From Halioglobus sp. (GTDB lineage: Bacteria; Pseudomonadota; Gammaproteobacteria; Pseudomonadales; Halieaceae): DNA of 64,000 nucleotides. The notes beneath the pieces are model-generated. The model saw only the letters and a list, made by a program, of their open reading frames with translations. It was not told the DNA's origin and ran no database searches. The DNA is taken from positions 16,945-80,944 of the forward strand of contig JABSPW010000001.1 of the NCBI GenBank assembly GCA_013214285.1, in the 5' to 3' direction. The translations under genes were made by a program, and so were the position numbers. Numbering within the stretch: position 1 is the stretch's first letter; each line of letters begins with the position of its first letter. Of this stretch, positions 14,826 through 54,057 are shown in pieces.

Positions 14826-15386
14826 ATGTCGTACTGCAAATCGCAATACCCGCTAATAGCACTCTTCCTCGCTATATTATCTGGTTCTGTTTTTAGCGCG
14901 CCTTACACGGTGAACCCCGGCGATATATTGCGCGTTGATGTCTGGAACGAAGAGGATCTCAGTCGAGAAATCCTGGTGCGCCCAGATGGCGTTATCAGCC
15001 TGCCGATGGCCGGCGAAATAGATACCAGCAACCATTCCCCGTCGGAAGTGGCAAACGAAATTTCCAAGGGCCTCGCCAAATACATGAAAGATGCTCCCCA
15101 GGTCGTCGTGTCGCTGGTTGATGTCCCCGGAAACAAGATCTTTGTCATCGGCAAGGTAATCCAGCCCGGCGAATACAAAATTACCAGCGACACCGACGTC
15201 ATGCAGGCGCTGGCACTTGCTGGAGGGCTAAACCCATTCGCCGCAGAAAATGATATACGTATCCTTCGCCGTAAACCCGATGGCACCCAAATTGCCATAC
15301 CGTTCGAATATGCCCAGGTTAAAGAGGGCAAGGCACTACACACGAACGTTATTCTGCGTAGTCGAGACGTTGTCGTAGTCCCTTGA
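14826..15386 (+). CDS. Polysaccharide export outer-membrane protein (Wza/Poly_export + SLBB type; PEP-CTERM-locus style)
   Basis: The ATG at 14826 gives a signal peptide MSYCKSQYPLIALFLAILSGSVFSA. The export motif is PGDILRVDVWNEEDLSREILVRPDGVISLPMAGEI. Confidence 0.85.
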   Translation: MSYCKSQYPLIALFLAILSGSVFSAPYTVNPGDILRVDVWNEEDLSREILVRPDGVISLPMAGEIDTSNHSPSEVANEISKGLAKYMKDAPQVVVSLVDVPGNKIFVIGKVIQPGEYKITSDTDVMQALALAGGLNPFAAENDIRILRRKPDGTQIAIPFEYAQVKEGKALHTNVILRSRDVVVVP

Positions 15387-16609
15387 TGCGCCTATCCCTA
15401 CCTGTGCGGAAATCTAAAATGATAAATAATAACAGCCGGGTCTTGACCTCAATCGCACTGATGTCGGTCTCCACGATACTGTCGGTCAATAGCACAGCGA
15501 ATGAATACTCTTTTGAATACAGTGTCCAAGGCGGCTACGAGTACAACGATAATATTGGTTTACGCAGCGAGGATGAGATCGATGTCTCAGGCGGGGTTAT
15601 TACCGCTCCCGCTACCCTTACCATCCGCAGTGAACGACTGGAAACTTCACTGATAGGTGAACTAACTTCCGCTAAGTATGACGACAGTGACTTCGACAGT
15701 GACGATCAGAACCTGGAAGGGCGCACCCAATACCTACTAGAGCGTGGGGAACTGACAGGTTATGCCGGCTACAAACGTGACTCTACACGGACCAGTGAAT
15801 TTCTCGATACTGGCATTGTCGGTCTTCGAGCAACCCGCGTCGAGCATGCCACGGCAGGTGGCTCTGTCGATTACATGTTCACAGAGAAAAATGGCCTTGT
15901 CGCCGGCGTCGATTATCTGGACAGGGACTATGACAGTCCACTGCAAACGGATTTCGACAATATTTCCGGCTACGCCGGCTGGCGGCACCAACAAACCGAG
16001 CGCACCTCGCTGCGACTGCAAGTCATCGCTGCCCGCTACGAAAACGATGCCAATTTACAAGTGACATCTGACAGTGTCGGCGCACAAGTCGGCTTTGACT
16101 CTGAGTTGTCTGAAGCACTGAACGTATTCCTGCTGGTCGGGTGGGTTAATGTAGATACGGACTATTCAGCTAACGCTTCTTCCATAGTCACTACACCCGA
16201 CGACGATAGCAATGATGTTTTCCAGATGAATGGATCACTCGTGTATCGCCAGGAACGCAATGAATTGTCGCTGGAGGTCAGCAGCGGCACACGTGCAACC
16301 GGCAGCGGCACGCTGGATGAAAGCCATCGGCTCAATCTTAGCTACAACTTCCGCTGGACTGAAGGCAGCCGGTTGCGTTTGGCGTTGGTAGGGGGCAAAA
16401 ATAGCTCATTGGATAGCGATGTTGACGACGACCGTGACTATGCGCGCGGTCGTATCGGTGTGGACTATCGCATCGCGGAGTCCTGGTACCTGGGAGGCAC
16501 CTACACCTATAGTTATCAGGACCGGCAGAGGGCCGACGGTGATGCCGACTCCAATCAGATCGATCTAAGCCTGATCTTCCGTCCTGACAGGCACGTTTGG
16601 TCGCGTTAA
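15386..16609 (+). CDS. Predicted outer-membrane beta-barrel protein of EPS loci (EpsL-like)
   Basis: The start overlaps the upstream stop (TGATG). It has a signal-like N-terminus and alternating D/Y/G-rich strands. The terminal region DLSLIFRPDRHVWSR is present. Confidence 0.6.
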   Translation: MRLSLPVRKSKMINNNSRVLTSIALMSVSTILSVNSTANEYSFEYSVQGGYEYNDNIGLRSEDEIDVSGGVITAPATLTIRSERLETSLIGELTSAKYDDSDFDSDDQNLEGRTQYLLERGELTGYAGYKRDSTRTSEFLDTGIVGLRATRVEHATAGGSVDYMFTEKNGLVAGVDYLDRDYDSPLQTDFDNISGYAGWRHQQTERTSLRLQVIAARYENDANLQVTSDSVGAQVGFDSELSEALNVFLLVGWVNVDTDYSANASSIVTTPDDDSNDVFQMNGSLVYRQERNELSLEVSSGTRATGSGTLDESHRLNLSYNFRWTEGSRLRLALVGGKNSSLDSDVDDDRDYARGRIGVDYRIAESWYLGGTYTYSYQDRQRADGDADSNQIDLSLIFRPDRHVWSR

Positions 16610-16669
16610 TACTGGCGCTGACACGTTTCAAATAGTCAAGACAAAATCGCATTGCAGGTTACCCTTTAG

Positions 16670-18430
16670 ATGATTGACAAAGAATTTCAGACAACCTCGC
16701 TAGACGACTACGTCCGAATGATTAAACGGCGCAAACTCTCGCTGCTTCTGCCCGCTATCATTATCGTGTCACTCGCGCTTTTACTGGCGTTTGGTATACC
16801 CGCCTTCTACCAGTCCCGGGCCACAATATTGATCGAAGAACAGGAGATTCCTCAGGATTTTGTCCGGGCCACCGTCGGCAGCTACGCAGCACAGCAGATA
16901 CAGGTCATAAGCCAACGCATACTCACGGTAGAGAACATCCGCGGTATCGCCGCAAAGTTCAACCTGCTGCAGTCCGAGGGCTCGAATTCGCCTGCTCCGA
17001 TCACAGAATTGGCTGAAAGGTTTCGAAGCAACGTCGACATCGACCTGGTCAGCGCCGATGTAATCGATCCCCGCAGCGGCCGACCGACGCAGGCCACCAT
17101 TGCTTTCACTCTGGCCTTTACTGACCCCAACCCGGTCGTGGCACAACAAGTTGCCGGCGAGCTGGTCAGTCTTTTCTTGGACGAAAACCTCCGGGACCGG
17201 GTCGGTCAAGTCGCCAGCACAGAGGCGTTTCTGGCGTCTGAAGCTGGCCAATTAAATAGTGAGTTGTTGAATCTGGAACAGCGCCTCGCGGATTTTAAAA
17301 TTGCGCACGAAGGTAATTTGCCCGAATTGTATCAATACAACCTGGCTACTCTGGAGCGCACTCAACAGGAATACGCTAACGTCCAGCGACGCATTCAAGA
17401 GCTGGATAATAGTAGGATCGAGATGTCTTCGAAATTGGCACAACTGAGCCCGTCCGCACCGGTAGTGCTGGCCACCGGTGAAACCGTACTCAGTTCAGCG
17501 GATAGGCTCAAGGCACTGCAATCGGAGTATCGAGGCAAGGCTGCCATCTATCGAAACAACCACCCCGACGTGATACGCCTGGAGAGAGAAATTAGCACTT
17601 TACAAAATGAACTTGGCGTAGGCACCAACGTGGATGAACTGCGCAAGCAGTTACAAGACCAACAGCTAAGGCTGGCCGACCTGCAAACCCGGTACAAAGA
17701 CGATCACCAGGATATCCTGAGTACAAAAAATCTGATCGCGGTGCTTGAGGACAATATTCGCACAACTCGCAGCAGCTCCAGAGCCTCCAAAGCACCGCAG
17801 GCAGACAATCCGGCCTACGTGTTACTGGAAACTCAACTCAGCGCTGTCCGGTCGGAAATGCGGTCTCTGAACAAGCTGAGCAGCGAACTGCAGGCCAAGA
17901 TGCAACATTACGAGGCATTGCGTAGACAGGCTCCGGAGGTGGAACGAAATTATAAAGCGTTACTGCGAGACTACAGTAATGCCGATGATAAGTACCAGGA
18001 CATCAAGATCAAGCAGCGTGAAGCAGCTGTATCTCGAAGCCTGGAACAAGAGCAAAAAGGTGAGCGATTTACTCTCATCGAGCCGCCGGCACTGCCATCC
18101 GACCCCATCAGCCCCAATCGGCCCGCTATTATTTTCCTGGGTTTGATATTGGGCGGCGGCGTCGGACTGCTCTTTGCGCTGCTGCGCGAAGTCATGGATA
18201 GTGCTATTCATGGTGCTCAAGAGCTCACGAACCTGATGGGCGAAGCCCCTCTGGTCGTTATTGAGTACATAGAAAATGACAACGATATTATGCGGCATAA
18301 GCGAGCCTGGGCACTCAGCCTGCTTGCGGCTGCTGCGGCTGGCTTATTCTTCATCTTCTATCTGCATATCTTTTACCAGCCGCTAGACGCTATTTACTTT
18401 TCAGCCATTGATAAGCTGGGGCTCAACTAA
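16670..18430 (+). CDS. Polysaccharide chain-length determinant (Wzz/PCP family, PEP-CTERM-locus type)
   Basis: An N-terminal TM (LLLPAIIIVSLALLLAF) is followed by a long coiled-coil periplasmic region. A C-terminal TM (IIFLGLILGGGVGLLFALL) closes the protein. Confidence 0.85.
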   Translation: MIDKEFQTTSLDDYVRMIKRRKLSLLLPAIIIVSLALLLAFGIPAFYQSRATILIEEQEIPQDFVRATVGSYAAQQIQVISQRILTVENIRGIAAKFNLLQSEGSNSPAPITELAERFRSNVDIDLVSADVIDPRSGRPTQATIAFTLAFTDPNPVVAQQVAGELVSLFLDENLRDRVGQVASTEAFLASEAGQLNSELLNLEQRLADFKIAHEGNLPELYQYNLATLERTQQEYANVQRRIQELDNSRIEMSSKLAQLSPSAPVVLATGETVLSSADRLKALQSEYRGKAAIYRNNHPDVIRLEREISTLQNELGVGTNVDELRKQLQDQQLRLADLQTRYKDDHQDILSTKNLIAVLEDNIRTTRSSSRASKAPQADNPAYVLLETQLSAVRSEMRSLNKLSSELQAKMQHYEALRRQAPEVERNYKALLRDYSNADDKYQDIKIKQREAAVSRSLEQEQKGERFTLIEPPALPSDPISPNRPAIIFLGLILGGGVGLLFALLREVMDSAIHGAQELTNLMGEAPLVVIEYIENDNDIMRHKRAWALSLLAAAAAGLFFIFYLHIFYQPLDAIYFSAIDKLGLN

Positions 18431-19287
18431 TGGAACCCTTACAGGAAGCAATTGAACAGGCCCGCCTGAAACGCGAGGGCGAAATTGGTCGAACGGCACC
18501 ACCCGGAGAGACACATCCCCAGCGCGTCGAAAAGGAGTCAATCGAAGAAAAGGACTCTCCAAGACCTGATAGAAATGCATCCGACGACTCCGGTCATTGC
18601 CTCGCCTCGCAGGTAAACTATTCATCTACACGCCTGGTCGAACCTGCCGACGAGCAACTTGCGGCAAACCGGGTCATCGCCAGTGAAAACAGCGATCCTC
18701 GGGTAGAAGTTTACCGCCAACTACGCAGTCAGATCCTGGCGAAGATGAAGCGCAATAACTGGCGTTCACTGGCCATCACAAGCGCTCAGGAAGGTGCGGG
18801 AAAGACCCTTACTGCGGTGAACTTGGCTATTACAATCTCGCAGCAAGAGAACCAGACAGTATTACTCGTAGACCTTGATCTACGAAAACCGGATGTACAC
18901 ACCACCCTGGGCCTAGAGATATCCAAGGGCATCGTCGATCATCTGATCCATGGGGAGCCCGTAGAAAATATCCTGCTAAACCCAGGCTACCCTCGACTGG
19001 TTGTGTTGCCGGGTCTGCCTCAAGGGCGTTACTCGTCTGAGGTTTTATCTTCTCCACAGATGAACATGTTCATCGACGACATCACAGGTCGCTACCCGGA
19101 GCGGATTATCATTTTCGACCTGCCTCCACTCCTTCGTAATGACGATGCCATGGTATTCGTGCCGAACGCAGATGCGTGCCTCTACGTGGTTGAAGATGGC
19201 GTCACACAACCGGATGAGATCGAGCGCTCAATGCAGTTACTCAAGCACTCGCATTTAATTGGAACTGTGCTCAATAAAGTGCGTTAG
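18430..19287 (+). CDS. Chain-length-determinant-associated tyrosine-kinase-like P-loop ATPase (BY-kinase catalytic domain)
   Basis: Walker A is TSAQEGAGKT and Walker A' is LLVDLDLRKP. The start overlaps the PCP stop (TAATG). No C-terminal Tyr cluster is visible. Confidence 0.75.
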   Translation: MEPLQEAIEQARLKREGEIGRTAPPGETHPQRVEKESIEEKDSPRPDRNASDDSGHCLASQVNYSSTRLVEPADEQLAANRVIASENSDPRVEVYRQLRSQILAKMKRNNWRSLAITSAQEGAGKTLTAVNLAITISQQENQTVLLVDLDLRKPDVHTTLGLEISKGIVDHLIHGEPVENILLNPGYPRLVVLPGLPQGRYSSEVLSSPQMNMFIDDITGRYPERIIIFDLPPLLRNDDAMVFVPNADACLYVVEDGVTQPDEIERSMQLLKHSHLIGTVLNKVR

Positions 19288-19306
19288 TCGCTGGCGGTAT
19301 TAGACT

Positions 19307-20206
19307 ATGTATACTCAGTTCTTTGGCATGAGGGAAAAGCCGTTCAGTCTTATACCCGACGGCGACTCCATCTATTTTTCGCCAGGGCATCTGGCGGCTT
19401 TCAGCATGCTGGAGTTTGGCTTGCTTGAGCAAGTCGGCATCACATTGATAACCGGTGAGGTGGGAGCGGGAAAGACGACTCTCATCAGACACCTGTTGAG
19501 CCGCATTGATTACGACCAACTCACTGTTGGTCTCATTGGCACTGCCCATAGCAGCTATGGCACCTTGCTAAAGTGGATTGTCAACGCCTTCGCTATCGAC
19601 ACGGAGAGTCAGGATGAAGGTGCTATGCTGCAGGCGCTGCAAGCCTTCTTGATCGAACAGTACGGCAACGGCAAACGCACGGTAGTGATCGTTGACGAAG
19701 CCCAAAATATGTCCTCGGAGGATTTGGAATCTCTGCGCTTGCTCACCAATATCAATGCAGACAAGAACCAACTTTTACAGATTATTCTGGTCGGCCAACC
19801 GGAACTCCTGGAAAAATTTCATGAAACCGGTATGTCGCAGCTGGCGCAACGCGTCTCAGCTGAATATAACCTTGTGCCCCTGGATGTTTTTGAAACCATG
19901 AGCTATGTCCGGTATCGGATAGACAGTGTGGGGGGGTCAGAAGATTTGTTTGATACCGCAGCATGCCTGGCTGTGTATTACTTCAGTGGCGGCATTCCGC
20001 GGATTATTAATACCTTGTGTGATGGAGCCCTTGTATTTGCTTACGGGCAGCATAAGGAGGCTGTGACCCTGGACATTGTTCTTGATGTAGTGCGCACCAA
20101 GCGGATAGGCGGAATTCATCGTGCGGGCATCGACCTTCCCGATAGGGAGACCGTGCGCGCCAATATCAAGGAAATTAGTGGAGTGGACCTGCTGGAATTG
20201 GTGTAA
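19307..20206 (+). CDS. ExeA/GspA-like AAA ATPase (PEP-CTERM-locus secretion ATPase type)
   Basis: The N-terminus is MYTQFFGMREKPFSLIPD. Walker A is GEVGAGKTT and Walker B is VVIVDEAQNM. Confidence 0.8.
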   Translation: MYTQFFGMREKPFSLIPDGDSIYFSPGHLAAFSMLEFGLLEQVGITLITGEVGAGKTTLIRHLLSRIDYDQLTVGLIGTAHSSYGTLLKWIVNAFAIDTESQDEGAMLQALQAFLIEQYGNGKRTVVIVDEAQNMSSEDLESLRLLTNINADKNQLLQIILVGQPELLEKFHETGMSQLAQRVSAEYNLVPLDVFETMSYVRYRIDSVGGSEDLFDTAACLAVYYFSGGIPRIINTLCDGALVFAYGQHKEAVTLDIVLDVVRTKRIGGIHRAGIDLPDRETVRANIKEISGVDLLELV

Positions 20207-20496
20207 CAGCGATAGCTGATCGCCGGAGAGCGTCGAGAACATAGTATGAATGAGCGCTTCTTCTCGCTGCTATTTTCAATCCTAGTGGCGGCACTCTGCT
20301 TCTTCCACGAGCGGGTGTAGATGGACGGTATCTGGTCAAATCAGGAAAACGGTAGGCTTCGGTTTATACTCATCTTCCTCGAAATTGATGCGCTCTGGGG
20401 GGCACTTCCCGGCGTGAAAAAAGTTGCCGGGGTAACCGTTAGAGGCCCCTTTAATCCTACCCCATTGCCTGGGATTTTTCGCGGGATCCGGTGGTA

Positions 20497-22152: not shown

Positions 22153-22156
22153 TTGC

Positions 22157-41333: not shown

Positions 41334-41349
41334 TGGCACAGTTTGAGCT
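41334..41349 (+). promoter_or_regulatory. Candidate sigma54 (-24/-12) promoter for beta-helix gene copy 2
   Basis: TGGCACAGTTTGAGCT has GG and GC at consensus spacing. It lies in a 45-nt block (41306-41350) matching 26401-26445 at 33 of 45 positions ungapped. Confidence 0.4.
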
Positions 41350-41561
41350 TGCGTTAAACATCACAAGGGCAGCAACCCGTAAGACTCTAGTCAGTATGCG
41401 GGATGAACTGCGGCCAAAGACCGTTTACTGAAAAACTAGATATATATTTAAAATATCATTAATGTGTAAAATCATTCGATAATTATATATCTGGACAGCA
41501 CACCCAGGAAGCATTCACCTCAGGTGCGAGTTGATGACCGAGACTGACAAGGCAAAAATCG

Positions 41562-43085: not shown

Positions 43086-43766
43086 TGCCCACACTCTGAA
43101 CCAACGCCGAATGGCCTCGACCCCCACACCGGGATGGAGCGCAACACGCAGCATCGCGCGCAGCGGCAAGATCACTGTTACTGACATACTGCGTAACCTC
43201 GACGCTTCAGCTCTTCGGGTATGGTTAATTGACCAAACAATACGCACCCAGCCTAGATCAAGCTTCACAGTAAGCATATAATGCTAGCGCGTACTCAATT
43301 TTGTAGCCAAAGCGGCCGGCCTGCCGTGGGCTCCGACACTGGGTTGCACTGTCCGCTTATCAAAACCGGGAGCCTACTACCCGCTGTCACCAGGCGTTTG
43401 CCCGCGCGCGGTAAGCATTTTCTAAAAAGCAGGTAGATCAAGGCGCCCAAAACCCAGGGAAGACAAGCACCCACACTACCGTATTCATCATTATTTACTC
43501 TCAGTATGTGATGCGGGCCACTCATTCTGCCATTCATCACTGATCTCGGCCTGCATCATCATGCTATTATCTGTTCCTGCACGGACCACCGTTTGCGTCG
43601 AGCCTATGCACGTGATCCAGCAGAGGATGCGCATGCAGGGTCGCGATTGACATCATGGCTGTCATTGTGTTCTGACTTGCCAAGGCCGCAGCCTGGGCCT
43701 GTCCAATGTGGTTCCAATACTCCTTGTTAGCAGACAGGAATACCTGGACTCAGGAGCTGAACTGAC

Positions 43767-46263: not shown

Positions 46264-46282
46264 TTGACTTTCAGTGGTGGGA

Positions 46283-47389: not shown

Positions 47390-47408
47390 AGATGCTTATG
47401 AAGTCAAG

Positions 47409-48410
47409 TTGACAGCTATGTTAACCGAGCAGGGATTTGAGAATGAAAACTGCCTACTTTTCATTATTGGAATGCCCCGATCTGGAACAAAATTACTAAG
47501 GCAGCTATTAAACCAGCACTCAAGAATCCGTATTCCGAATATTGAAACGGAATTTTACCCGTTCCTGGTGCGCTATATTGACAAGCATGGTCCCTGCGAT
47601 GGACTGTCTGATTTCCTTCAGATGGCAAAAGCCCTACAAACTATGCCTTTCTTTATCTATATGCGAGAAGAATGTAATGCTATCGATACTGTAAGTTGGT
47701 ATAAAGCGTGCCGAGACTACAGCGCTGCAGGAATTTTCTACGGCCTGCTACTGTCAGCCACTAAATCGTATGGAAGTAATGGGCTTTTTATCGGTGATAA
47801 ATCGCCTTCATACATCAACCAACTGGCACAACTTAATCAATCGTTTCCAAAAGCCAGATTCATTCATATCGTTAGAGATGCCCGTGATTACAGTCTATCT
47901 ATCAATCACGCTTGGGGAAAAAATAAAATCCGTGCTGCGTCACGATGGTCTGACTCGATTGGGTCACTTATTCGATACCGAAAACACATAAGGCTCCACG
48001 AATTACGCTACGAGGACCTTATCGAAAATCCACAATGCGAACTCAAAGCGATATGTACATTTTTGGGTCTACCGTTCGAAAATGGGATGACTAACCCTGA
48101 TCGTATCGTAGAAAACCTGGGTGACACACGAGATTCCATCAATGTGATACCTGCGAATTCACATAAGTACAAGCGTCTAATGACAAAACGATGTCAGCAT
48201 AAAATTGAAAAAATTACTTGTGAAGAAATGCGTACTTATGACTATGAAATCGAATGGTCAGGTGAAGCAAAAAAGCCCAATCCGCTTACTAATATGTTTT
48301 TGCAGCTAATAGATGGCTTTAATTTGGTGAGGCATGAAAAGAACCAGCGAGGTATCTTTGGCAGTATCGCCTTCTATTGGAACTATTTCCGCGCCACCCG
48401 TGCGCTTTAG
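47409..48410 (+). CDS. PAPS-dependent sulfotransferase (ST5)
   Basis: The 5'-PSB loop is IIGMPRSGTKLLRQLL and the 3'-PB motif is IHIVRDARDYSLSIN. The start is TTG at 47409, with an alternative ATG at 47418. Confidence 0.8.
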   Translation: MTAMLTEQGFENENCLLFIIGMPRSGTKLLRQLLNQHSRIRIPNIETEFYPFLVRYIDKHGPCDGLSDFLQMAKALQTMPFFIYMREECNAIDTVSWYKACRDYSAAGIFYGLLLSATKSYGSNGLFIGDKSPSYINQLAQLNQSFPKARFIHIVRDARDYSLSINHAWGKNKIRAASRWSDSIGSLIRYRKHIRLHELRYEDLIENPQCELKAICTFLGLPFENGMTNPDRIVENLGDTRDSINVIPANSHKYKRLMTKRCQHKIEKITCEEMRTYDYEIEWSGEAKKPNPLTNMFLQLIDGFNLVRHEKNQRGIFGSIAFYWNYFRATRAL

Positions 48411-48434
48411 CACTTTGGCTTGGATAGAGCAGAT

Positions 48435-49505
48435 ATGTACGTTCTAATGATCGGACCAGGATTAACAGTCAGAGGCGGCATATCTTCTGTAGAGCGACTG
48501 ATCGTCGAGTGCAGTTCACAAGCCGATTTTTCTATTGCTCATTTGAGCAGCTATGAAGATGGCGGCTTTCTAAAAAAATTATTTGCCTTCGGCAAATCCA
48601 TTATTGCTGTTCCAGGCATCTTCATTACCACTGATATAGCGTTAGTGCACATACACTTTTCGCATTATGGAAGTACTTTACGGAAAATACTGCTACTTCA
48701 TTATCTGCGCCTTTTCCGTCGACCTATCGTTATGCATTCCCACGGTTCTGATTTTCATATTTTTTTCAAAGGCTTGCCTGGTATCGCTCGGCGGTTTCTT
48801 CAGTATTCGTTATCGCGTACAACGCGCATCATTGTTTTATCACAGAGTTGGAAGGATTTTTATGTAAATGACCTTCAACTCGACCCATCGAATATTTTTG
48901 TACTTCAGAATCCTGTGGAGACTTCTGACCCATCTTCAGAAATAGATAAAGGCTACACTCAATATTTATTTCTTGGTCGCCTGGAGAGGCGCAAAGGCAT
49001 TTACGACATCGTAGAAGCATTTGCCAAGCTAGATGAAACCGCCGACCTGAAAGACATGCGATTCATCGCGGCAGGTGACGGCGATTTGGGAAAGGTGAAA
49101 GCTCTAATTGCAGACAAAGGACTGGAGCCCGTCATAGCAGTGGAAGGATGGGTTGATAGAGAAAGGGTTGCTGATTTACTGCAGGCGTCAGACGTTTTAC
49201 TGCTCCCTTCTTACAATGAGGGATTACCTATGGCTTTGCTTGAAGCGATGGGATCAGGCTTAACGGTAATCACATCCCCTGTGGGAGGCATTCCAGAGGT
49301 TATTAAAGACGGTGTAAACGGCATACTTGTGCCGCCCGGTGACATTAACGCATTAATCCAAGCCATATGGAGTAGTCGGGACGCTAATCTTCGAAGCGAG
49401 CTCGGCAACAACGCGAAAGACACAGTGCAGTCGAATTCATTGGAAGTGTATTGTAAAAAGCTTTTTAAGCTCTATGAATCCATCTGTCACTATTCGCTAA
49501 AGTAA
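48435..49505 (+). CDS. Glycosyltransferase group 1 (GT-B)
   Basis: The ATG at 48435 gives MYVLMIGPG. The E-x7-E region is EGLPMALLEAMGSGLTVITSPVGGIPEVI. Confidence 0.8.
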   Translation: MYVLMIGPGLTVRGGISSVERLIVECSSQADFSIAHLSSYEDGGFLKKLFAFGKSIIAVPGIFITTDIALVHIHFSHYGSTLRKILLLHYLRLFRRPIVMHSHGSDFHIFFKGLPGIARRFLQYSLSRTTRIIVLSQSWKDFYVNDLQLDPSNIFVLQNPVETSDPSSEIDKGYTQYLFLGRLERRKGIYDIVEAFAKLDETADLKDMRFIAAGDGDLGKVKALIADKGLEPVIAVEGWVDRERVADLLQASDVLLLPSYNEGLPMALLEAMGSGLTVITSPVGGIPEVIKDGVNGILVPPGDINALIQAIWSSRDANLRSELGNNAKDTVQSNSLEVYCKKLFKLYESICHYSLK

Positions 49506-49602
49506 GACGTTTCTAGTTGGAATAACGCATTTTGTTATTTATTCAGGAATACATGCTAATGCCTCTCTTTGAAATATCGCTAGTCTAAAGGTCACTATTT
49601 AA

Positions 49603-51477
49603 ATGTGTGGTATTTTTGGCGTACTGAACGGATCGAATGACACCTTTATCTCGCAAGCAGATGTAGAGGAAGCTATCGGTTTGCTGTCCCACCGAGGACC
49701 AGACGATGGAGGCATAGAAGAACTATTTAGTGGAAAAGGCCACAAAGGTTTCCTGGGGCACCGGCGGCTATCCATCATTGACCTGGAAGGGGGAAAACAG
49801 CCCATGGTCGATGCGCATGCCGGACACGTTTTGACTTACAACGGCGAAATTTACAATTACAAGAGCTTACGGAAGCAGCTTCAGAGTGAAGGATACATAT
49901 TCAAGGAACGCTCTGATACTGAGGTAATCCTGAAAGCTTACCAACGATGGGGAAGGCAGTGTGTTGAGCACCTACGCGGTATGTTTGCTTTTGCAATATG
50001 GGATAGCGCCAAGGGTGAATTGTTTCTCGCCCGAGATCATTTTGGGAAAAAGCCGCTTTTCTATGTGCAACAGGGTCATTCTCTCTATTTTTCCTCCGAG
50101 ATAAAGGCTCTTCTTTCGCTACCGACGCTGTCGTTTTCAATGGATTACGACAATATTAAAAATTACCTCATTTACCGCTACATACCCGGACCCGATACAC
50201 TTATTCGAGAAATAAAGAAACTACCTCCCGGCGCAACACTTGTGTGGAAAGACGGTCGGTTTGACCTCACACCCTACTTCGTTCCGGCAGAAGCAACTGC
50301 AATACAGTCTAATATAAGTGAGCGTGATGCAGTCAACGACTTCTGGCTAAAACTTGATGAGGCTGTTGAACTTAGGATGCAGGCAGATGTTCCCTTCGGC
50401 GCTTTTCTGTCAGGTGGTATAGATTCATCGGCTATAGTGGCGCTAATGAGTCGACACAATCACCAGCGGGTAAGAACATTTTCTGTAGGTTTCAAAGAGG
50501 CGGAATATAGTGAACTGTCTTATGCGAAAGTAATAGCTGATTTTTTTTCCACTGAACACAATGAACTTTTGGTGTCACATAAAGACCTGATCGAACTACT
50601 ACCCAAGCTTATCCGCTACCGCGATGCTCCTGTGTCAGAGCCTTCGGATATCGCTATTTATATGCTGTCGATGGAAGCGAGCCGTACAGTAAAAATGGTA
50701 CTGACCGGAGAAGGTAGCGATGAAATACTAGCCGGATATCCTAAGCATGCGTATGAGCGTTACGGGCAGCTTTACCGAAAACTACCTGGCCTTCTGCGTC
50801 GAGACGTCATTGAACCGCTTGTCTACAAACTGCCCTACAGGTTCCGTCGAGCGAAGACGGCAATTCGAAATTTCGGCATAGACCGCTACGATGAGAGAAT
50901 GCCTGGCTGGTTCGGTGCAGTGGACAAATCTCAGGCGTCAAAACTGTTACGACTGAATGGTCAGAATGATTTGCCTCATATTGCGCCGTCCAGAGCTGGC
51001 GGCTCGTTGCGAGATATTCTCCTCTTTGATCAGAAAAGCTGGTTACCCGACAATCTGCTGGAAAGGGGTGATCGAGTAACAATGGCTGCATCTATAGAAG
51101 CTCGCATGCCCTTCATGGACATTCAACTTGCCGCTTTTGCAGCTACCTTACCCGATAAATATCGTGTCCGTAACCTCAGTACCAAGTGGGTACTAAGACA
51201 GGCGATGCAAGGCATCCTACCTCAAAATATATTAGACAGACCAAAGGTCGGATTTAGAATACCAGTCAACGAGTGGTTTAGAACAAGCATGAAAGCACAA
51301 CTTATGGACAACCTTCTTAGCGCAGATTCCCTATCAAACCAGTTTTATGATTCCAATATCCTCAATAAACTGGTTAATGAACACGTGCGAGGACGACAGA
51401 ATCACGAAAAGTTACTATGGACGTTGCTTAATCTCGAAATTTGGATGCGAGAATATCGCAGTAGGATAGCTTTTTGA
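49603..51477 (+). CDS. Asparagine synthase (glutamine-hydrolysing)-family amidotransferase, EPS-locus type
   Basis: The N-terminal nucleophile is MCGIFG. The PP-loop is FLSGGIDSSAIVALM. Confidence 0.9.
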   Translation: MCGIFGVLNGSNDTFISQADVEEAIGLLSHRGPDDGGIEELFSGKGHKGFLGHRRLSIIDLEGGKQPMVDAHAGHVLTYNGEIYNYKSLRKQLQSEGYIFKERSDTEVILKAYQRWGRQCVEHLRGMFAFAIWDSAKGELFLARDHFGKKPLFYVQQGHSLYFSSEIKALLSLPTLSFSMDYDNIKNYLIYRYIPGPDTLIREIKKLPPGATLVWKDGRFDLTPYFVPAEATAIQSNISERDAVNDFWLKLDEAVELRMQADVPFGAFLSGGIDSSAIVALMSRHNHQRVRTFSVGFKEAEYSELSYAKVIADFFSTEHNELLVSHKDLIELLPKLIRYRDAPVSEPSDIAIYMLSMEASRTVKMVLTGEGSDEILAGYPKHAYERYGQLYRKLPGLLRRDVIEPLVYKLPYRFRRAKTAIRNFGIDRYDERMPGWFGAVDKSQASKLLRLNGQNDLPHIAPSRAGGSLRDILLFDQKSWLPDNLLERGDRVTMAASIEARMPFMDIQLAAFAATLPDKYRVRNLSTKWVLRQAMQGILPQNILDRPKVGFRIPVNEWFRTSMKAQLMDNLLSADSLSNQFYDSNILNKLVNEHVRGRQNHEKLLWTLLNLEIWMREYRSRIAF

Positions 51478-53454
51478 ATGAATGCAAGATGGATCATCAA
51501 TCGATTAAAAGCGATGACTATCGCGGAGGTCTTGCATCGTGGTTCCCGTCTATTTACTTTGTACGCGGAAAAGTGGGCTGTCATGATGGGCTGGGAACCA
51601 AACGCACGGCATAGCGAGCCCGGACATTCAGACGCTTTATTCCCCTGTTCCATCGACGAGACTATGATAAGCTCAGATTTGGAATCTTTGTCTGAGTCAT
51701 TACGATCTGGACACGTTGACCTATTCGACTATCAGCATTTGCAGACGGGCAACCCTGTCCAGTGGCATGTTGACCCCCTCACATTGACGCAGATCGATAG
51801 TAAGGCTTTCGGTAAAACGCTGAACTATCGTGATTCTAGGCAAGTTGGCGATGTAAAGGTGATCTGGGAGCTGGGCAGACACCAGTTCCTGGTGCCTATA
51901 GCAATTGAGTTCCTAGTGGAAAAGGATGATGAACACCTTGACGTGATTGCAAATGTGCTGTCATCTTGGCTTGATCAAAATCCATATGGAAAGGGAATAC
52001 ACTGGTGCAGCTCACTTGAGGTGGCCCTTAGAGGCATAAGTTGGGCTGTGACCCACCAGATTTTGCGGGCTGCTGGCTTAGAGCATGGACTCTTTTCGCT
52101 CAAGCTGGACAACATAACCCTGAAAAAAAGCCTGTATCAACACGCGTGGTTTACACGGCATTACCTTTCCCAGTTTAGTTCAGCAAACAATCATTTGATT
52201 GGCGAACTGACGGGACTTCTGGTACTTACCACGGTATTCCCTTTCGGGAATGAAACTAACAAATGGCGTGTGTTTGCTTGGCAGAAAATACAGCGCCAAG
52301 CACTGGACCAGGTTTGGCCCGATGGGGTGAACAAAGAGCAAGCTATTTATTATCACAGCTGGGTGCTAGAGTATTTTATTATCGCATATACTACCGCCAC
52401 CCGTTCGGGCATCAGCGTTCCCAGAAGCTTTGTTGATGTAATCTACGCCATGGCAGATTTTCTTGCCACGTTGTGCCCTTCCTTCGATGGGCGCGACTTG
52501 CCTCAGGTAGGTGACGCAGACGACGGTGTTGCATTGCGCTTCAGTGAAGCAAAAAAAACTAACTACTATACAGACCTGATTGCATCGGCCGCGCACATTG
52601 CAGGTCTAACTGCCTGCCCTAGCCAGTCTACTAAAGCATTGTGGTACGCCAGTTTGGGCGCAGTACGATCAGAGCACAAGGCCGCCTCACTATTCGCTCG
52701 CCAGTATCCAAAGATTTTCACAGAGGGCGGCTACGCCGTTCTGGGATCGGAAAACCTTCATTTACTATTCGACGCGGGGCCTATTGGATATCCCTCGATA
52801 GCAGCACATGGGCATGCAGATGCATTGAGTTTTTGTCTAGCGATTGACAAGGAATGGTGGTTAGTGGACCCGGGGACGTACGCCTATCATGCGGAAGAAC
52901 AGTGGAGAAACTACTTTCGCGGCACTGCGGCTCACAATACCGTATTAATCAATAATGAGAACCAGTCACAAATCGGCGGGGCATTTCTATGGCTTGACAG
53001 GGCAGAGGTTGATTTCGAAGGGCTGGTGGAGACAGCGGATCCGTGTGAACAAAGTTGTAGTGGGTCTGTCAGAAAATATTTTCGTTCACCGGATGTAGCT
53101 GTGACCCGGACCGTTCGTATTAATCCAAAAGCGTCGACGATCTTTCTGGCGGATCAGATTACCTGTTCCTGTCCCACGGACGTGTCGCTCTGTTTCCACT
53201 TCGCGCCCCACATCAATGTAGAAGTCTACGACGAGAACCGCTGCAAGGCGAGTATAGCAGGGGGCTCCAAAGCCATGCACCTGACGTTCTCCAGCACGTG
53301 CTCTCTGGCTACATACTGCGGCAGTGAGAATCCCATCTGGGGATGGTACTCGGGCTCACTTGGCAAGAAAGAGCCCTGTATCACGTTGGTTGCCAGTACT
53401 CGGCTATACGACAGCACTAAACTGAACACAAAGATTGATATTCTGGCAATATGA
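51478..53454 (+). CDS. Heparinase II/III-family protein, no signal peptide
   Basis: The ATG immediately follows the amidotransferase TGA. Motifs are NNHLIGELTGL and SIAAHGHADALSFCL. The N-terminus MNARWIINRLKAMTIAEVLHRG is not signal-like. Confidence 0.7.
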   Translation: MNARWIINRLKAMTIAEVLHRGSRLFTLYAEKWAVMMGWEPNARHSEPGHSDALFPCSIDETMISSDLESLSESLRSGHVDLFDYQHLQTGNPVQWHVDPLTLTQIDSKAFGKTLNYRDSRQVGDVKVIWELGRHQFLVPIAIEFLVEKDDEHLDVIANVLSSWLDQNPYGKGIHWCSSLEVALRGISWAVTHQILRAAGLEHGLFSLKLDNITLKKSLYQHAWFTRHYLSQFSSANNHLIGELTGLLVLTTVFPFGNETNKWRVFAWQKIQRQALDQVWPDGVNKEQAIYYHSWVLEYFIIAYTTATRSGISVPRSFVDVIYAMADFLATLCPSFDGRDLPQVGDADDGVALRFSEAKKTNYYTDLIASAAHIAGLTACPSQSTKALWYASLGAVRSEHKAASLFARQYPKIFTEGGYAVLGSENLHLLFDAGPIGYPSIAAHGHADALSFCLAIDKEWWLVDPGTYAYHAEEQWRNYFRGTAAHNTVLINNENQSQIGGAFLWLDRAEVDFEGLVETADPCEQSCSGSVRKYFRSPDVAVTRTVRINPKASTIFLADQITCSCPTDVSLCFHFAPHINVEVYDENRCKASIAGGSKAMHLTFSSTCSLATYCGSENPIWGWYSGSLGKKEPCITLVASTRLYDSTKLNTKIDILAI

Positions 53455-53571
53455 AACAGGCGGATCGCGAGACGCTCAAACAGTTTGTTCTTAACGCGCG
53501 ATGCAGTAAGTCACGCTCACCGGCCCGGCGCTATCCAAGGCGGGCCTTAGCGAAAAGGGAGCATAGAGCGC

Positions 53572-54057
53572 TCAGGCTGTGGCGTTTTCGGCTACCTGCT
53601 GCTTGCGGTCTCTGCGTCGAGAGACTATTGTCAAACCCATCAATGCCGAACCAAAGAGCCAGGCAGCCGCTGGGATAGGCACCGCAAACTTGTCGGAAAA
53701 GGCATTGTCCACGCCATCTCTAATGTCATGGTCGCTGCGCATTGTGAGTCTGCGTACATCCGGGAGCCCACTCGCGGTCCTCGTCAAACCCAGCACAATG
53801 CTGAGGTCACCCTCAGTAGCGGCTAGTCTCTCTTTTACATTGTCAGGGGCAACTTGGAACGTCCGGTGTTCGGTGCCCTCGGGTCGCCCGCCGACATCCA
53901 ACAACGATGCCACCGGCCCCGGTTCCCTGTCGAAGCCAGGGACCGTCATGCTATACCAGGCCCCATTGTTTGCCACGCTAACCTGTGCGGCCGAGGCGTG
54001 AGTACCGATCAACATAAACAGCACAATGGGTAACAGCTTTTCGTATCGTCCTTTCAT
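53572..54057 (-). CDS. Secreted protein with C-terminal VPLPA/PEP-CTERM-type sorting signal
   Basis: The ATG at 54057 is preceded by AAGGAG with a 6-nt spacer. The signal peptide is MKGRYEKLLPIVLFMLIGTHASA. The C-terminus is VPIPAAAWLFGSALMGLTIVSRRRDRK, that is a motif, a TM helix and an Arg cluster. Confidence 0.7.
   Translation of the reverse strand: MKGRYEKLLPIVLFMLIGTHASAAQVSVANNGAWYSMTVPGFDREPGPVASLLDVGGRPEGTEHRTFQVAPDNVKERLAATEGDLSIVLGLTRTASGLPDVRRLTMRSDHDIRDGVDNAFSDKFAVPIPAAAWLFGSALMGLTIVSRRRDRKQQVAENATA

Follow-up and report, generated by a model that had tools for sequence, protein, structure and literature searches.

Organization of the locus

The window analyzed here, a 64-kb stretch from a metagenome-assembled genome (MAG) of an uncultured marine Halioglobus, contains a low-GC island of about 40 kb (44–51% GC versus 55–57% in the flanks). 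Family assignments by Pfam and NCBIfam were obtained for 27 of 27 genes, and signal peptides were called heuristically, from hydrophobicity and inspection. The lowest-GC segment of the island is a 13-kb cassette (44.8%, about 45%), which is bracketed by two copies of an exact 1,470-bp direct repeat (26765–28234 and 41578–43047) that are 100% identical to each other. The low GC of the cassette, against about 57% in the flanks, is consistent with horizontal exchange of a variable region. Neither the low GC of the island nor the repeat-bracketed cassette had been noted in the initial annotation, which described a candidate pathway for a sulfated, uronate-containing exopolysaccharide (EPS) with glycosaminoglycan-like logic. 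The seven elements that it had placed in one locus (export and chain-length control; Wzx, Wzy-like, initiating and glycosyltransferase proteins; GDP-mannose 6-dehydrogenase; two heparinase-fold proteins; a deacetylase; five sulfotransferases; a secreted sulfatase) were all recovered in place from the open reading frames and the Pfam and NCBIfam matches.

Export and assembly genes

The export and chain-length block encodes an OPX-type polysaccharide export protein with Poly_export and SLBB domains (14763–15386, +; Pfam E 1.3e-20), an outer-membrane β-barrel protein of the PEP-CTERM-locus type with an N-terminal leader (15383–16609, +; OMP_b-brl E 4.6e-8; weak TIGR03016/EpsL matches), a polysaccharide co-polymerase or chain-length determinant (16670–18430, +) whose GNVR and Wzz matches each lie slightly under the respective Pfam gathering score, its tyrosine autokinase partner (18430–19287, +; TIGR03018 164 bits, cutoff 230.65; eps_fam 87 bits), a PEP-CTERM-system-type AAA ATPase (19307–20206, +; TIGR03015 262 bits, cutoff 324.5), and a PrsT-like TPR lipoprotein (22157–24337, +; TIGR02917 266 bits, cutoff 312) with a lipoprotein-like leader ending in LLAC before S. 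The OPX protein scores 119 bits against TIGR03027 pepcterm_export (cutoff 180) and the co-polymerase 232.9 bits against TIGR03007 (cutoff 278.85); orthologues of the OPX protein and the ATPase in the related locus L001 are 67% and 76% identical, respectively. The island edge is marked by a gene for a small secreted protein (53572–54087, −; VPLPA-CTERM 24.1 bits, cutoff 25.35; PepA E 6e-7) with the PEP-CTERM-like sorting tail VPIPAAAWLFGSALMGLTIVSRRR, a gene that had been overlooked. The PEP-CTERM machinery claimed initially holds with respect to the type of the export genes, but every PEP-CTERM-system model scores below its curated cutoff in the window, and no exosortase was found within the 64 kb by Pfam and NCBIfam profile searches.

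Chain initiation is represented by a WecA/MraY-family polyprenyl-phosphate HexNAc-1-P transferase (20491–22152, +; Glycos_transf_4 E 4e-37) of 553 aa with an extended C-terminus and about 15 hydrophobic segments, which scores 132.7 bits, under the cutoff, against TIGR02380 wecA. A Wzx flippase (39277–40584, −; Polysacc_synt_3 and Polysacc_synt) has at least nine TM-like segments, and a Wzy-type polymerase of the Wzy_C family (32715–34106, −; 31.8 bits, cutoff 31.7) at least seven; orthologues of the latter, 40–46% identical, adjoin the gene for the heparinase-fold protein Hepar1 in L001–L004. Four glycosyltransferases belong to GT4. GT_a (36144–37439, −; Glyco_transf_4 E 2e-10) is linked to Hepar1, and its orthologues (54–57% identical) lie directly upstream of Hepar1 in L002, L003 and L006. 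GT_b (45064–46263, +) was assigned by Pfam, and GT_c (46274–47389, +) and GT_d (48420–49505, +) match Glycos_transf_1 with E 5e-35 and 2e-36, respectively.

The supply of GDP-mannuronate is represented by an AlgD-type GDP-mannose 6-dehydrogenase (GMD; 43767–45080, +), which matches the Pseudomonas aeruginosa enzyme over its full length (PDB 1mfz, E 4e-162, 543 bits) and the best UDP-glucose dehydrogenase with 236 bits, confirming the earlier assignment. Its orthologue in L086 is 70% identical and is adjoined by a GT_b orthologue (77%). An AsnB-like glutamine amidotransferase of the PEP-CTERM-locus type (49603–51477, +; Asn_synthase E 3e-100; TIGR03108 503.6 bits, cutoff 816.9) possibly catalyzes a uronate amidation step; this gene had also escaped the first reading.

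Sulfotransferases

Five sulfotransferases were predicted, and each scores above the Pfam gathering threshold for Sulfotransfer_1 or Sulfotransfer_3. ST1 (29041–29925, +; Sulfotransfer_3 E 6.5e-19) belongs to a clade resembling the heparan-sulfate 3-OST and NDST enzymes, with PDB matches to 3rnl (E 2e-43), HS 3-OST-3A1 (E 3e-11) and NDST1 (E 2e-9) and the motifs GAPKAGTTS and RNPADRAFS; this homology with 3-OST and with the sulfotransferase domain of NDST favors the initial reading. ST2 (30051–30965, −; Sulfotransfer_3 E 2.8e-26) carries GLPRTGSK and RDPRAILAS. ST3 (37555–38475, −; Sulfotransfer_1 E 9e-14; NoeE E 6e-13) belongs to a rare NoeE-like subfamily, for which a search of 1.84 billion cluster representatives gave only 11 matches at E<=1e-30, and is 50–53% identical to its orthologues in L001–L004. 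The stop of the Stf0-like ST4 (38472–39248, −; Sulfotransfer_3 E 1.5e-11; Stf0 family E 1.7e-6) overlaps the ST3 start by 4 nt, and an identical 4-nt overlap is present in L001 and L002. ST5 (47409–48410, +; Sulfotransfer_3 E 1e-32), which resembles CurM-ST and TPST, matches 4gox and 4gbm (E about 1e-9) and has the motifs GMPRSGTK and RDARDYSLS.

The assignment of five PAPS sulfotransferases with readable cofactor motifs thus withstood the profile search: the 5'-PSB motif P/T-K/R-x-G-S/T and the 3'-PB motif R-N/D-P...S occur in all five proteins, the latter as the variants R-N-N in ST4 and R-D-A in ST5. Because their pairwise identity is just 16–25% while the PAPS motifs are intact, the five proteins are not redundant copies. 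By the hydrophobicity heuristic, the sulfotransferases, the glycosyltransferases and the heparinase-fold proteins have no leader or TM segment. Genes for PAPS synthesis (cysDN/cysC), cysQ and a sulfatase maturase were not found within the 64-kb window by Pfam and NCBIfam profile searches; PAPS supply, sulfatase maturase and exosortase would have to be located outside the window.

Heparinase-fold proteins and secreted enzymes

Two leaderless heparinase-III-fold proteins carry Hepar_II_III_N and Hepar_II_III_C domains. Hepar1 (34186–36138, −) is PL12-like and represents a rare clade, for which just 17 homologues were found; its AF2 model (pLDDT 84) retrieves 5jmd (E 3e-20) and DS-epi1 6hzn (E 1.6e-10) in Foldseek, and NNH, Y297 and H436/H438/D440 are invariant in the family. 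Hepar2 (51478–53454, +) belongs to a very large, widespread clade with at least 5,992 homologues; it matches 5jmd in the PDB (E 3e-10) with aligned N-H, Y and H catalytic positions, and its AF2 model (pLDDT 89) retrieves 4mmh (E 2e-25). In both families the residues at the catalytic positions are invariant, and the structural ranking is led by PL12 heparinase III, followed by PL15/PL17 alginate lyases, with human dermatan-sulfate epimerase 1 also matched. Hepar1 is a candidate for a cytoplasmic uronate C5-epimerase or lyase. Of the "possible epimerase" proposed earlier, the leaderless heparinase II/III fold is borne out for both proteins, but sequence and fold suit epimerase and lyase alike.

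Among 79 distant loci with Hepar homologues, an AlgD-type GMD lies within 10 kb in 25 and an AsnB-like gene in 44, which ties the heparinase fold to mannuronate-containing biosynthesis. Many loci without sulfation genes, in unrelated phyla, also contain Hepar2, AsnB, GMD and the CE4 deacetylase type, which are therefore not specific to sulfation. Only the sulfation cassette is rare, and Hepar2, AsnB and GMD are part of a widespread unsulfated module.

Clear leaders were recognized, by hydrophobicity, in the sulfatase and both β-helix proteins. The formylglycine-type S1 sulfatase (24735–26147, +; Pfam Sulfatase E 1e-55, SGSH_C), with the leader MRFRLLIFVLIFFSNLALA before Q and CSPSR at residue 71, resembles GlcNAc-6-O-sulfatases, which are also its nearest solved structures (best match 5g2v, E 5.5e-74), in agreement with the initial reading. 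The CE4 (NodB-fold) polysaccharide deacetylase (31225–32217, −; Polysacc_deac_1 E 4.8e-15; motifs TFDDG and HSYTH) has an N-terminal membrane anchor (hydrophobic segment at residues 9–30); a periplasmic position of its domain would preclude the supply of substrate to an N-sulfotransferase in the cytoplasm.

The two β-helix proteins, identical across 490 residues, and the repeat that they share are absent from the initial annotation. The first (26755–28623, +; start inferred from the paralogue) has a PL6/chondroitinase-B-like N-terminus and a C-terminal Big_7 Ig domain, with matches to Beta_helix (E 2e-10), Big_7 and, slightly under the gathering score, Chondroitinas_B; its leader is LLPGLALLLSCHLVLPSAASA before A. 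The second (41562–43085, +) is secreted without the Big_7 tail and weakly matches the PL6 alginate lyases 7o84 and 7o7a. A PDB search gave no AlgG match for these proteins. The first is a candidate cognate lyase or periplasmic C5-epimerase, two activities that would look the same in sequence and fold for both proteins.

Related loci

A second full locus (L086) was found on the JGI metagenome contig Ga0675945_000187, with gene-for-gene identities of 45–77% (about 55% overall). It comprises the export block, the WecA-like gene, ST4–ST3, Hepar1, Wzy, Wzx, two further sulfotransferases, GMD, a Hepar2-like gene and GT4s, together with a secreted CSPSR sulfatase (58% identical) and three secreted lyases whose fold is unlike that of the β-helix proteins, embedded between glycosyltransferases and sulfotransferases. 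The embedded orthologous sulfatase again favors the initial reading; no sulfatase was seen within the limited flanks covered in L002 and L003. A core of Wzx, ST4, ST3, GT_a, Hepar1 and Wzy recurs in three shorter loci (L002, L003/L004), and the GT_a–Hepar1 pair in L006. In L001 and L002, the core cassette directly adjoins an export block and a WecA-like gene like those of the island.

Proposed biosynthetic pathway

The genes support the earlier claim that one coherent locus directs the synthesis of an extracellular polysaccharide with sulfate and uronate, using Wzx/Wzy and export genes of the PEP-CTERM type, and the island is likely to be a horizontally mobile, Wzx/Wzy-dependent EPS locus of the PEP-CTERM-associated type with an acquired sulfation cassette. 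In the proposed pathway, the WecA-family enzyme would load a sugar, presumably HexNAc-1-P, onto undecaprenyl phosphate, and the four cytoplasmic GT4 enzymes would lengthen it into a repeat unit of some five sugars, a size suggested by the gene count. At least one of these would be mannuronate, provided as GDP-ManA by the AlgD-type dehydrogenase. ST1–ST5, with their PAPS motifs and absent leaders, could then sulfate putative acceptors on the lipid-linked unit, each enzyme probably having its own position; sulfation is placed at the cytoplasmic face because PAPS and the sulfotransferases are cytoplasmic. Hepar1 and Hepar2 retain the residues (Asn/His, Tyr and His) by which the C5 proton of a uronate is abstracted, and their most plausible role would be C5-epimerization (ManA to GulA) of the lipid-linked unit; the AsnB-like enzyme may amidate the uronate carboxylate. 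The unit would be flipped by Wzx and polymerized by Wzy, and the polymer would leave through the block of PCP/kinase, OPX and outer-membrane proteins, families that were all assigned above. Outside, the anchored CE4 deacetylase, the GlcNAc-6-sulfatase-like enzyme and the β-helix proteins could trim, edit or release the polymer, if it is their substrate. Dedicated lyases and hydrolases exist in other EPS operons, to which this trimming may be likened.

Alternative explanations

The island could instead be a mosaic, in which a conventional, unsulfated PEP-CTERM-type EPS locus lies beside catabolic genes (the sulfatase, the β-helix proteins and the heparinase-fold proteins as lyases) that serve to break down sulfated glycans of algae or animals from outside and stand apart from the biosynthetic system. 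The sulfatase is a member of a very large, mostly catabolic GlcNAc-6-sulfatase-like family (at least 7,226 matches), and two of its four closest homologues lie in unrelated, non-EPS contexts, one beside a TonB-dependent receptor; there is a weak resemblance between the β-helix proteins and alginate and chondroitin lyases of PL6, and lyases of PL12/15/17 have the Hepar fold. Such a mosaic is nevertheless improbable: profile searches of the island revealed no SusC/D, TonB receptor, transporter or sugar-catabolism genes, and the Hepar proteins have no export signals and co-occur with GMD and AsnB biosynthetic genes across phyla. The independent JGI locus again embeds the orthologous sulfatase and secreted lyases between glycosyltransferases and sulfotransferases, and the different fold of those lyases points to selection for function rather than chance adjacency.

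It is quite unlikely that the product is a sulfated O-antigen/LPS or a glycan on PEP-CTERM proteins, with the Wzy_C-family protein (Wzy_C being the O-antigen ligase family of Pfam) acting as a ligase and not as a polymerase. The Wzy_C match is marginal, initiation is of the WecA type typical for O-antigens, and the edge of the island carries a gene for a PEP-CTERM-type protein; however, the OPX protein, the outer-membrane barrel and the PCP-2-type chain-length protein, whose tyrosine kinase is a protein of its own, are hallmarks of capsule/EPS export and not of O-antigen ligation. Sulfated LPS has rhizobial and Vibrio precedents (PMC11641403 predicts O-antigen sulfation), but waaL-adjacent core genes are absent here. 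Very little probability is given to the view that the apparent density stems in part from an assembly or binning artefact, the low-GC 13-kb cassette having been wrongly joined from a different population or strain, so that the five sulfotransferases would not be co-resident in one operon set. The source is a MAG, the 100% identical repeat flanks the lowest-GC segment, and the contig index has no record of those window proteins that were looked up by exact sequence. Against this, the repeats do not enclose ST5 or the sulfatase, so that sulfation genes stand on both sides, and in the independent contigs L001 and L002 the core cassette is again joined to an export block and WecA-like gene of the kind seen here. 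Polysaccharide loci, moreover, normally have low-GC variable centers.

Comparison with known systems

The island shares gene order and families with the XrtA/PEP-CTERM EPS loci (TIGR03007, 03015, 03018, 03027, 03108, 02917), namely export, outer-membrane and chain-length proteins, tyrosine kinase, ATPase, PrsT and AsnB-like amidotransferase, and it also has a PEP-CTERM-tailed protein and a partner of the heparinase II/III family; in contrast to those loci, no exosortase or PrsK/PrsR is in the window. A literature search found no paper naming sulfotransferases together with PEP-CTERM and exopolysaccharide. The synechan xss cluster of Synechocystis sp. PCC 6803 likewise directs a Wzx/Wzy-dependent EPS, with PAPS-type sulfotransferases among glycosyltransferases and sulfation proposed, as here, at the repeat-unit stage, but it lies on a cyanobacterial megaplasmid under XssQRS regulation instead of carrying PEP-CTERM-type export genes, and has no uronate dehydrogenase, sulfatase, lyase-fold proteins or deacetylase (PMC8205485). 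Its sulfate-to-sugar stoichiometry is tracked by the gene counts of two sulfotransferases and eight glycosyltransferases (PMC8205485), as against five sulfotransferases for one initiating transferase and four glycosyltransferases in the window.

The initial list of bacterial sulfation cases was incomplete, given the published Vibrio, Cobetia, Pontiella and Actinoplanes clusters. Vibrio sp. KMM 8419 and Cobetia marina KMM 1449 are also marine gammaproteobacteria with sulfotransferases in polysaccharide loci; their polymers are structurally verified as sulfated, and their loci are ABC-transporter (kps) dependent, with one to three sulfotransferases among 70–80 genes (three across 80 genes in Vibrio), no sulfatase, and cysNDC/cysQ in the locus, whereas the window is Wzx/Wzy-dependent and far denser, with no PAPS genes in view (PMC11641403, PMC11766843). 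The Actinoplanes wps-1 cluster has two sulfotransferases (PMC13390465). The sulfatase-rich Pontiella sulfatireligans, of another phylum, resembles the window in having a cluster predicted for a sulfated glycosaminoglycan-like exopolymer, but this cluster has one sulfotransferase and no uronate dehydrogenase or embedded sulfatase/lyase (PMC7356697). The density claimed initially is thus exceptional, as the described clusters compared here carry one to three sulfotransferases, and by gene content the predicted sulfation toolkit of the island is denser than that of any bacterial polysaccharide locus found described.

Alginate biosynthesis shares an AlgD orthologue for GDP-mannuronate and β-helix and lyase-fold proteins encoded with the pathway, which makes C5-epimerization to guluronate plausible here; alginate is, however, a synthase-dependent homopolymer, in contrast to a sulfated Wzx/Wzy heteropolymer, and Alg8, Alg44, AlgK and AlgE are absent from the window. 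Animal heparan/dermatan sulfate biosynthesis offers parallel classes, with a deacetylase, several position-specific PAPS sulfotransferases, an extracellular 6-sulfatase-like enzyme and, in DS-epi1, the fold of the lyase-fold proteins. The "step by step" parallel proposed initially does not hold: the uronate donor is GDP-ManA (alginate chemistry) rather than UDP-GlcA, the deacetylase is CE4 rather than NDST-like, and neither a GAG-type synthase (EXT/KfiA-C/PmHS-type) nor a Glce (PF06662) epimerase is found in the window. Animal polymers are modified in the Golgi lumen, whereas the bacterial substrates must be lipid-linked units in the cytoplasm. The glycosaminoglycan parallel of the island is one of analogy, not membership.

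Organization of the Polysaccharide Island

The product of the polysaccharide island (~14.7–54.1 kb) is likely, from its gene content, a sulfated, uronate-containing exopolysaccharide (EPS). All functional assignments are sequence predictions on a MAG of an uncultured marine gammaproteobacterium of the Halieaceae. ORF calls together with Pfam and NCBIfam profile searches recovered every element that the initial annotation had placed in one contiguous locus, from export proteins to five sulfotransferases and a secreted sulfatase, and its coordinates match the ORFs. The GC content is 44–51% in the island and ~55–57% in the flanks, which carry housekeeping genes: carAB, an FtsJ-type methyltransferase, an SDR, and two acyl-CoA dehydrogenases on the left, and a thioesterase, alcohol dehydrogenases, a thiolase, and a TonB receptor on the right. 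Rfam and tRNA scans detected no tRNA, integrase, or Rfam element marking the island edges, and Rfam, tRNA, and promoter/terminator scans gave no signal above chance. In the left flank, a 242-aa ORF (3142–3870) contains the Plug domain of a TonB receptor alone, without the barrel, and could be a receptor gene that has been truncated or frameshifted.

The island consists of three blocks. Block A (+ strand, 14.8–29.9 kb) encodes an export protein (OPX), an outer-membrane barrel, a chain-length co-polymerase (PCP), a tyrosine kinase, a PEP-CTERM-type ATPase, a 553-aa initiating transferase of the WecA/MraY family, and a PrsT-like TPR lipoprotein, followed by the sulfatase, a β-helix protein, and the sulfotransferase ST1. 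Block B (− strand, 40.6–30.1 kb) encodes Wzx, ST4, ST3, the glycosyltransferase GT_a, the heparinase-fold protein Hepar1, Wzy, a CE4 deacetylase, and ST2. Block C (+ strand, 41.6–53.5 kb) encodes a second β-helix protein, the GDP-mannose 6-dehydrogenase GMD, GT_b, GT_c, ST5, GT_d, an AsnB-like amidotransferase (49603–51477), and a second heparinase-fold protein, Hepar2, and the island ends with a small protein bearing a VPIP-TM-RRR sorting tail. The amidotransferase, of a type typical of PEP-CTERM loci, and the two secreted right-handed β-helix proteins, whose N-terminus is chondroitinase-B/PL6-like, had been overlooked in the initial annotation, as had the repeat-bounded cassette and the ST4/ST3 overlap described below.

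An exact direct repeat of 1,470 bp (100% identity; 26765–28234 and 41578–43047) spans nearly the entire coding sequence of both β-helix genes; copy 1 runs on into a Big_7 Ig domain, and copy 2 ends 12 codons past the repeat. The repeats enclose a 13.3-kb segment of 44.8% GC containing ST1, ST2, the deacetylase, Wzy, Hepar1, GT_a, ST3, ST4, and Wzx, which is effectively a "sulfation plus polymerization" cassette. The repeat could be a recombination substrate for loss or gain of the cassette, a recombination scar, a recent duplication, a product of gene conversion, or an assembly artefact. Unusually long non-coding gaps at 40585–41561 (~1.0 kb) and 43086–43766 (~0.7 kb) flank the second β-helix gene; neither has an Rfam match, and their promoter/terminator signals are not above chance.

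Assembly, Export, and Uronate Supply

The Wzx/Wzy set is complete, with the initiating polyprenyl-phosphate sugar-phosphate transferase, Wzx, Wzy, PCP, and OPX all found. The Wzy_C match is marginal (31.8 bits against a cutoff of 31.7), and the protein has at least seven TM-like segments and orthologues conserved beside Hepar1. The WecA-like transferase (20491–22152; 553 aa, ~15 hydrophobic segments) exceeds a typical WecA by ~200 residues and several membrane spans, and its C-terminal extension is kept in the related loci L001 and L002.

The dehydrogenase GMD (43767–45080, + strand), which carries all three Pfam domains of the dehydrogenase architecture, was borne out as the AlgD type named at first reading: a PDB search aligned its residues 1–437 to residues 1–436 of 1mfz (543 bits, E = 4e-162). 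The NCBIfam ranking had suggested a UDP-glucose dehydrogenase, an identity overturned by the same search, in which Pseudomonas aeruginosa AlgD scored 543 bits and the best UDP-glucose dehydrogenase 236 bits.

Several proteins match NCBIfam PEP-CTERM models below the cutoff, namely export (119 bits against 180), chain length (233 against 279), kinase (164 against 231), ATPase (262 against 325), PrsT (266 against 312), and amidotransferase (504 against 817). The sorting-tail protein likewise scores 24.1 bits against a cutoff of 25.35, and no exosortase was found among window ORFs of at least 150 aa. By these scores, the island proteins are relatives of XrtA/PEP-CTERM components and not equivalogs of them.

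Candidate Carbohydrate Sulfotransferases

All five sulfotransferases, ST1 (29041–29925, +), ST2 (30051–30965, −), ST3 (37555–38475, −), ST4 (38472–39248, −), and ST5 (47409–48410, +), score above the gathering cutoffs of Sulfotransfer_1/Sulfotransfer_3 (22–27 bits), with 69.5, 93.6, 51.9, 45.5, and 114.5 bits, respectively. Both PAPS-binding motifs, defined as a 5'-PSB loop P/x-K/R-x-G-S/T-T/x and a 3'-PB motif R-x-x-x...S, are readable as GAPKAGTT and RNPADRAFS in ST1, GLPRTGSK and RDPRAILAS in ST2, GYTRSGTT and RNPNACIAS in ST3, STQRTGST and RNNYLRVII-S in ST4, and GMPRSGTK and RDARDYSLS in ST5. Their pairwise identity is only 16–25%, which indicates five distinct enzymes and no recent duplicates. 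They are candidate carbohydrate sulfotransferases on the basis of their homology to HS 3-OST/NDST, NoeE, and Stf0 and the position of their genes amid those for glycosyltransferases, Wzx, and Wzy. Among characterized proteins, ST1 is closest to heparan-sulfate 3-O-sulfotransferases and the NDST sulfotransferase domain; ST3 resembles NoeE, ST4 resembles Stf0, and ST5 resembles CurM-type and tyrosylprotein sulfotransferases.

ST3 has no solved-structure relative at E ≤ 0.01 and belongs to a tiny subfamily (11 cluster representatives at E ≤ 1e-30 among 1.84 billion); a scan of metagenomes with an ST3 profile returned only four short contigs, whose contexts bring nothing new. The ST4 stop overlaps the ST3 start by 4 nt (38472–38475 in the window), and because this overlap is kept in L001 (8914–8917) and L002 (7739–7742), it suggests that ST4 and ST3 are a translationally coupled pair, possibly forming a complex.

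Sulfatase, Deacetylase, and Sulfate Supply

The secreted S1 sulfatase (24735–26147, +) carries the signature CSPSRASFLTG at residue 71, matches Pfam Sulfatase with E = 1e-55, and has a leader ending in ALA|Q; leader calls were heuristic, based on inspection and a hydrophobicity scan. Since its nearest solved relatives are a Bacteroides GlcNAc-6-O-sulfatase (5g2v, E = 5.5e-74) and a mucin-desulfating sulfatase, it hints at HexNAc-6-sulfate in the predicted polymer. Two of its four closest homologues sit in unrelated contexts. No FGE/anSME maturase gene was found in the window, and profile searches detected no PAPS synthesis genes or cysQ in the 64 kb.

The CE4 deacetylase (31225–32217, −) adjoins ST2, lies near the NDST/3-OST-like ST1, and is unrelated to the NDST deacetylase. 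It retains the metal and catalytic motifs and has an N-terminal membrane anchor, and similar CE4 genes are also present in unsulfated loci.

Leaderless Heparinase-Fold Proteins

The AlphaFold models of Hepar1 (34186–36138, −) and Hepar2 (51478–53454, +) are confident (pLDDT 84 and 89, pTM 0.89 and 0.93). In Foldseek searches, PL12 heparinase III was nearest to both Hepar1 (E = 3e-20) and Hepar2 (E = 2e-25), followed by PL15/PL17 alginate lyases and PL33, with human dermatan-sulfate epimerase 1 as a further match (E = 1.6e-10 and 6.4e-14). Both proteins align at their Asn-His, Tyr, and His positions with residues of heparinase III that we take to be the catalytic residues of PL12. The invariant residues are N240/H241, Y297, and H436/H438/D440 in the Hepar1 family and NNH, Y292, and H444/H446/D448 in the Hepar2 family. 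Neither protein matched the DSE-like_N/DUF4962 model.

Epimerases and lyases of this type are not separable by sequence or fold because both share the step of C5-proton abstraction. By inspection and hydrophobicity scan, Hepar1, Hepar2, and their JGI orthologues lack a leader, unlike degradative lyases, which are secreted or periplasmic. Being cytoplasmic and strongly linked to GDP-mannuronate supply, they more probably have an anabolic role, of which epimerization of ManA to GulA on lipid-linked units is the likeliest.

The two families differ in size. A collection of 5.8 billion proteins yielded no more than 17 homologues of Hepar1, and the Hepar2 family has at least 5,992 members. A profile scan of 185,579 species-representative genomes with Hepar1 returned one close locus (4.4 kb) and 79 distant ones; the single-sequence scan of the genomes gave no match.

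Related Loci

Among the loci with Hepar1 homologues, L002 and L003/L004 share orthologues of Wzx, ST4, ST3, GT_a, Hepar1, and Wzy at 40–57% identity in a slightly different order, and the short locus L006 has the GT_a-Hepar1 pair only. These loci carry additional non-orthologous sulfotransferases, bringing the number to four per ~17–22 kb. A Sulfotransfer_2 (PF03567) gene at 14861–15550 of L002 belongs to a family missing from the window, so the sulfotransferase complement differs between loci. L003 (15320–19526 and 3581–5575) contains three interrupting transposase genes and a leader-bearing DUF4962 (DSE-like_N) plus Hepar_II_III_C protein, which is probably a secreted lyase and whose gene adjoins sulfotransferase and nucleotide-sugar dehydrogenase genes; such loci thus appear mobile and mosaic.

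A complete second locus of ~34 kb was found on the JGI contig Ga0675945_000187 (~139.5–173 kb; L001 and L086). It comprises the export block (53–76% identity), the WecA-like gene (57%), ST4, ST3, Hepar1, an acyltransferase, Wzy, Wzx, another sulfotransferase, GT_c (45%), a secreted CSPSR sulfatase (58%), a further sulfotransferase, a glycosyltransferase, a Hepar2-like protein, GMD (70%), and GT_b (77%). The β-helix proteins are replaced by three secreted PF14099 lyases, of which two carry Big_7, and the flank encodes a sigma-54 response regulator and a histidine kinase (PrsR/PrsK-like), both missing from the window. With its four sulfotransferases, embedded secreted sulfatase, GMD, two leaderless heparinase-fold proteins, and secreted lyases, this locus demonstrates that the combination recurs in a diverged genome. 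Furthermore, the different fold of its lyases represents a non-orthologous replacement, which argues for a required function and against accidental neighbours.

The 79 distant loci are distributed over phyla including Acidobacteriota, Planctomycetota, Chloroflexota, and Gemmatimonadota. Within 10 kb of their leaderless heparinase II/III-family genes, an AsnB-like gene occurs in 44 of the 79 and an AlgD-type GMD (~56% identity) in 25; a similar CE4 gene is found in seven, a weak sulfotransferase match in at most one, and an orthologous sulfatase in none of the 79. These counts identify Hepar2, AsnB, GMD, and CE4 as a widespread module of unsulfated polysaccharide loci, and only the sulfation cassette and the sulfatase set the island apart. 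In the literature searched, we found no description of the Hepar-AsnB-GMD association across phyla and no paper on heparinase-fold proteins in biosynthetic loci.

Proposed Pathway and Implications

In the proposed pathway, the WecA-like transferase would prime assembly with HexNAc-P, followed by four GT4 additions including that of ManA from GDP-ManA. Up to five sulfations may then occur in the cytoplasm, where they are placed because PAPS and the leaderless sulfotransferases are on the cytoplasmic side; C5-epimerization and amidation are possible at the same stage. Wzx would flip the unit, Wzy would polymerize it, and PCP/OPX would export the product, after which the deacetylase, the sulfatase, and the β-helix enzymes could act outside the cytoplasm. 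Up to approximately one sulfate per residue would be a reasonable upper bound for the island polymer by analogy with synechan, in which the sulfotransferase and glycosyltransferase gene counts fit the 2:8 sulfate-to-sugar ratio (PMC8205485).

A wider reading, which we consider rather unlikely to hold in all its parts together, would be a highly sulfated ManA/GulA-HexN(Ac) polymer with cytoplasmic sulfation and epimerization, editing by a secreted sulfatase, and a mobile cassette. Its makers would form a small, uncultured, Halieaceae-like clade of marine Gammaproteobacteria, and the polymer, with about one sulfate per sugar, would combine mannuronate/guluronate and (N-acetyl)hexosamine by a route topologically unlike the animal one. 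Five position-specific sulfotransferases, including the coupled ST4-ST3, would act on lipid-linked repeat units in the cytoplasm, and the leaderless lyase-fold enzymes would be bacterial counterparts of dermatan-sulfate epimerase. A dedicated secreted 6-O-sulfatase would edit the pattern after export, comparable to animal Sulf1/2, and the sulfation cassette would be a mobile 13-kb unit between the 1.47-kb repeats.

With five different predicted carbohydrate sulfotransferases in one compact and self-contained locus, the island would offer a toolbox of candidate position-specific enzymes for microbial heparin-like or alginate-sulfate materials, and would suggest heterotrophic marine bacteria as a source, not just a sink, of sulfated glycans in ocean carbon and sulfur cycles. 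It would also be a tractable system for asking whether C5-epimerization is the role of the cytoplasmic heparinase-fold proteins that thousands of polysaccharide loci encode. In addition, the embedded, conserved secreted sulfatase would be a first hint, to our knowledge, of bacteria remodelling the sulfation of the matrix they produce.

Comparison with Known Systems

The initial annotation had read the island as encoding a sulfated, uronate-containing EPS built with glycosaminoglycan-like logic; the polymer remains likely, and the glycosaminoglycan logic holds as an analogy only. UDP-glucose 6-dehydrogenase was not found, the sole nucleotide-sugar dehydrogenase in the window being of the AlgD type. 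In Pfam searches, all glycosyltransferases were GT4 and none matched GT2, GT45, or GT64; no glycosaminoglycan synthase (KfiA/KfiC, PmHS, HAS, or EXT-type) and no Glce-type C5-epimerase domain were found in the window. Given the GDP-ManA donor, the all-GT4 set, and the absence of a Glce domain and an NDST-type deacetylase, the island does not belong to glycosaminoglycan biosynthesis. The GDP-ManA donor is shared with alginate; the Alg8/Alg44 and AlgK/AlgE families are absent from the window and AlgG was not among the matches when the β-helix proteins were searched against the PDB, and without an Alg8/44 synthase the pathway is not alginate biosynthesis either. The island is similar to XrtA/PEP-CTERM loci in gene set and order, but every model is below its cutoff and the window contains no exosortase. 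No paper that brings sulfotransferases, PEP-CTERM, and exopolysaccharide together was found in the literature searched.

Bacterial sulfated polysaccharides are still regarded as rare and were called essentially cyanobacterial in papers of 2021 and 2026 (PMC8205485, PMC13390465). The marine capsule loci of Vibrio and Cobetia include their own cysNDC (PMC11641403, PMC11766843). The clusters of synechan, Actinoplanes wps-1, Pontiella, Vibrio, and Cobetia possess one to three sulfotransferases and no sulfatase (PMC8205485, PMC13390465, PMC7356697, PMC11641403, PMC11766843), whereas the island combines five predicted sulfotransferases with a secreted sulfatase.
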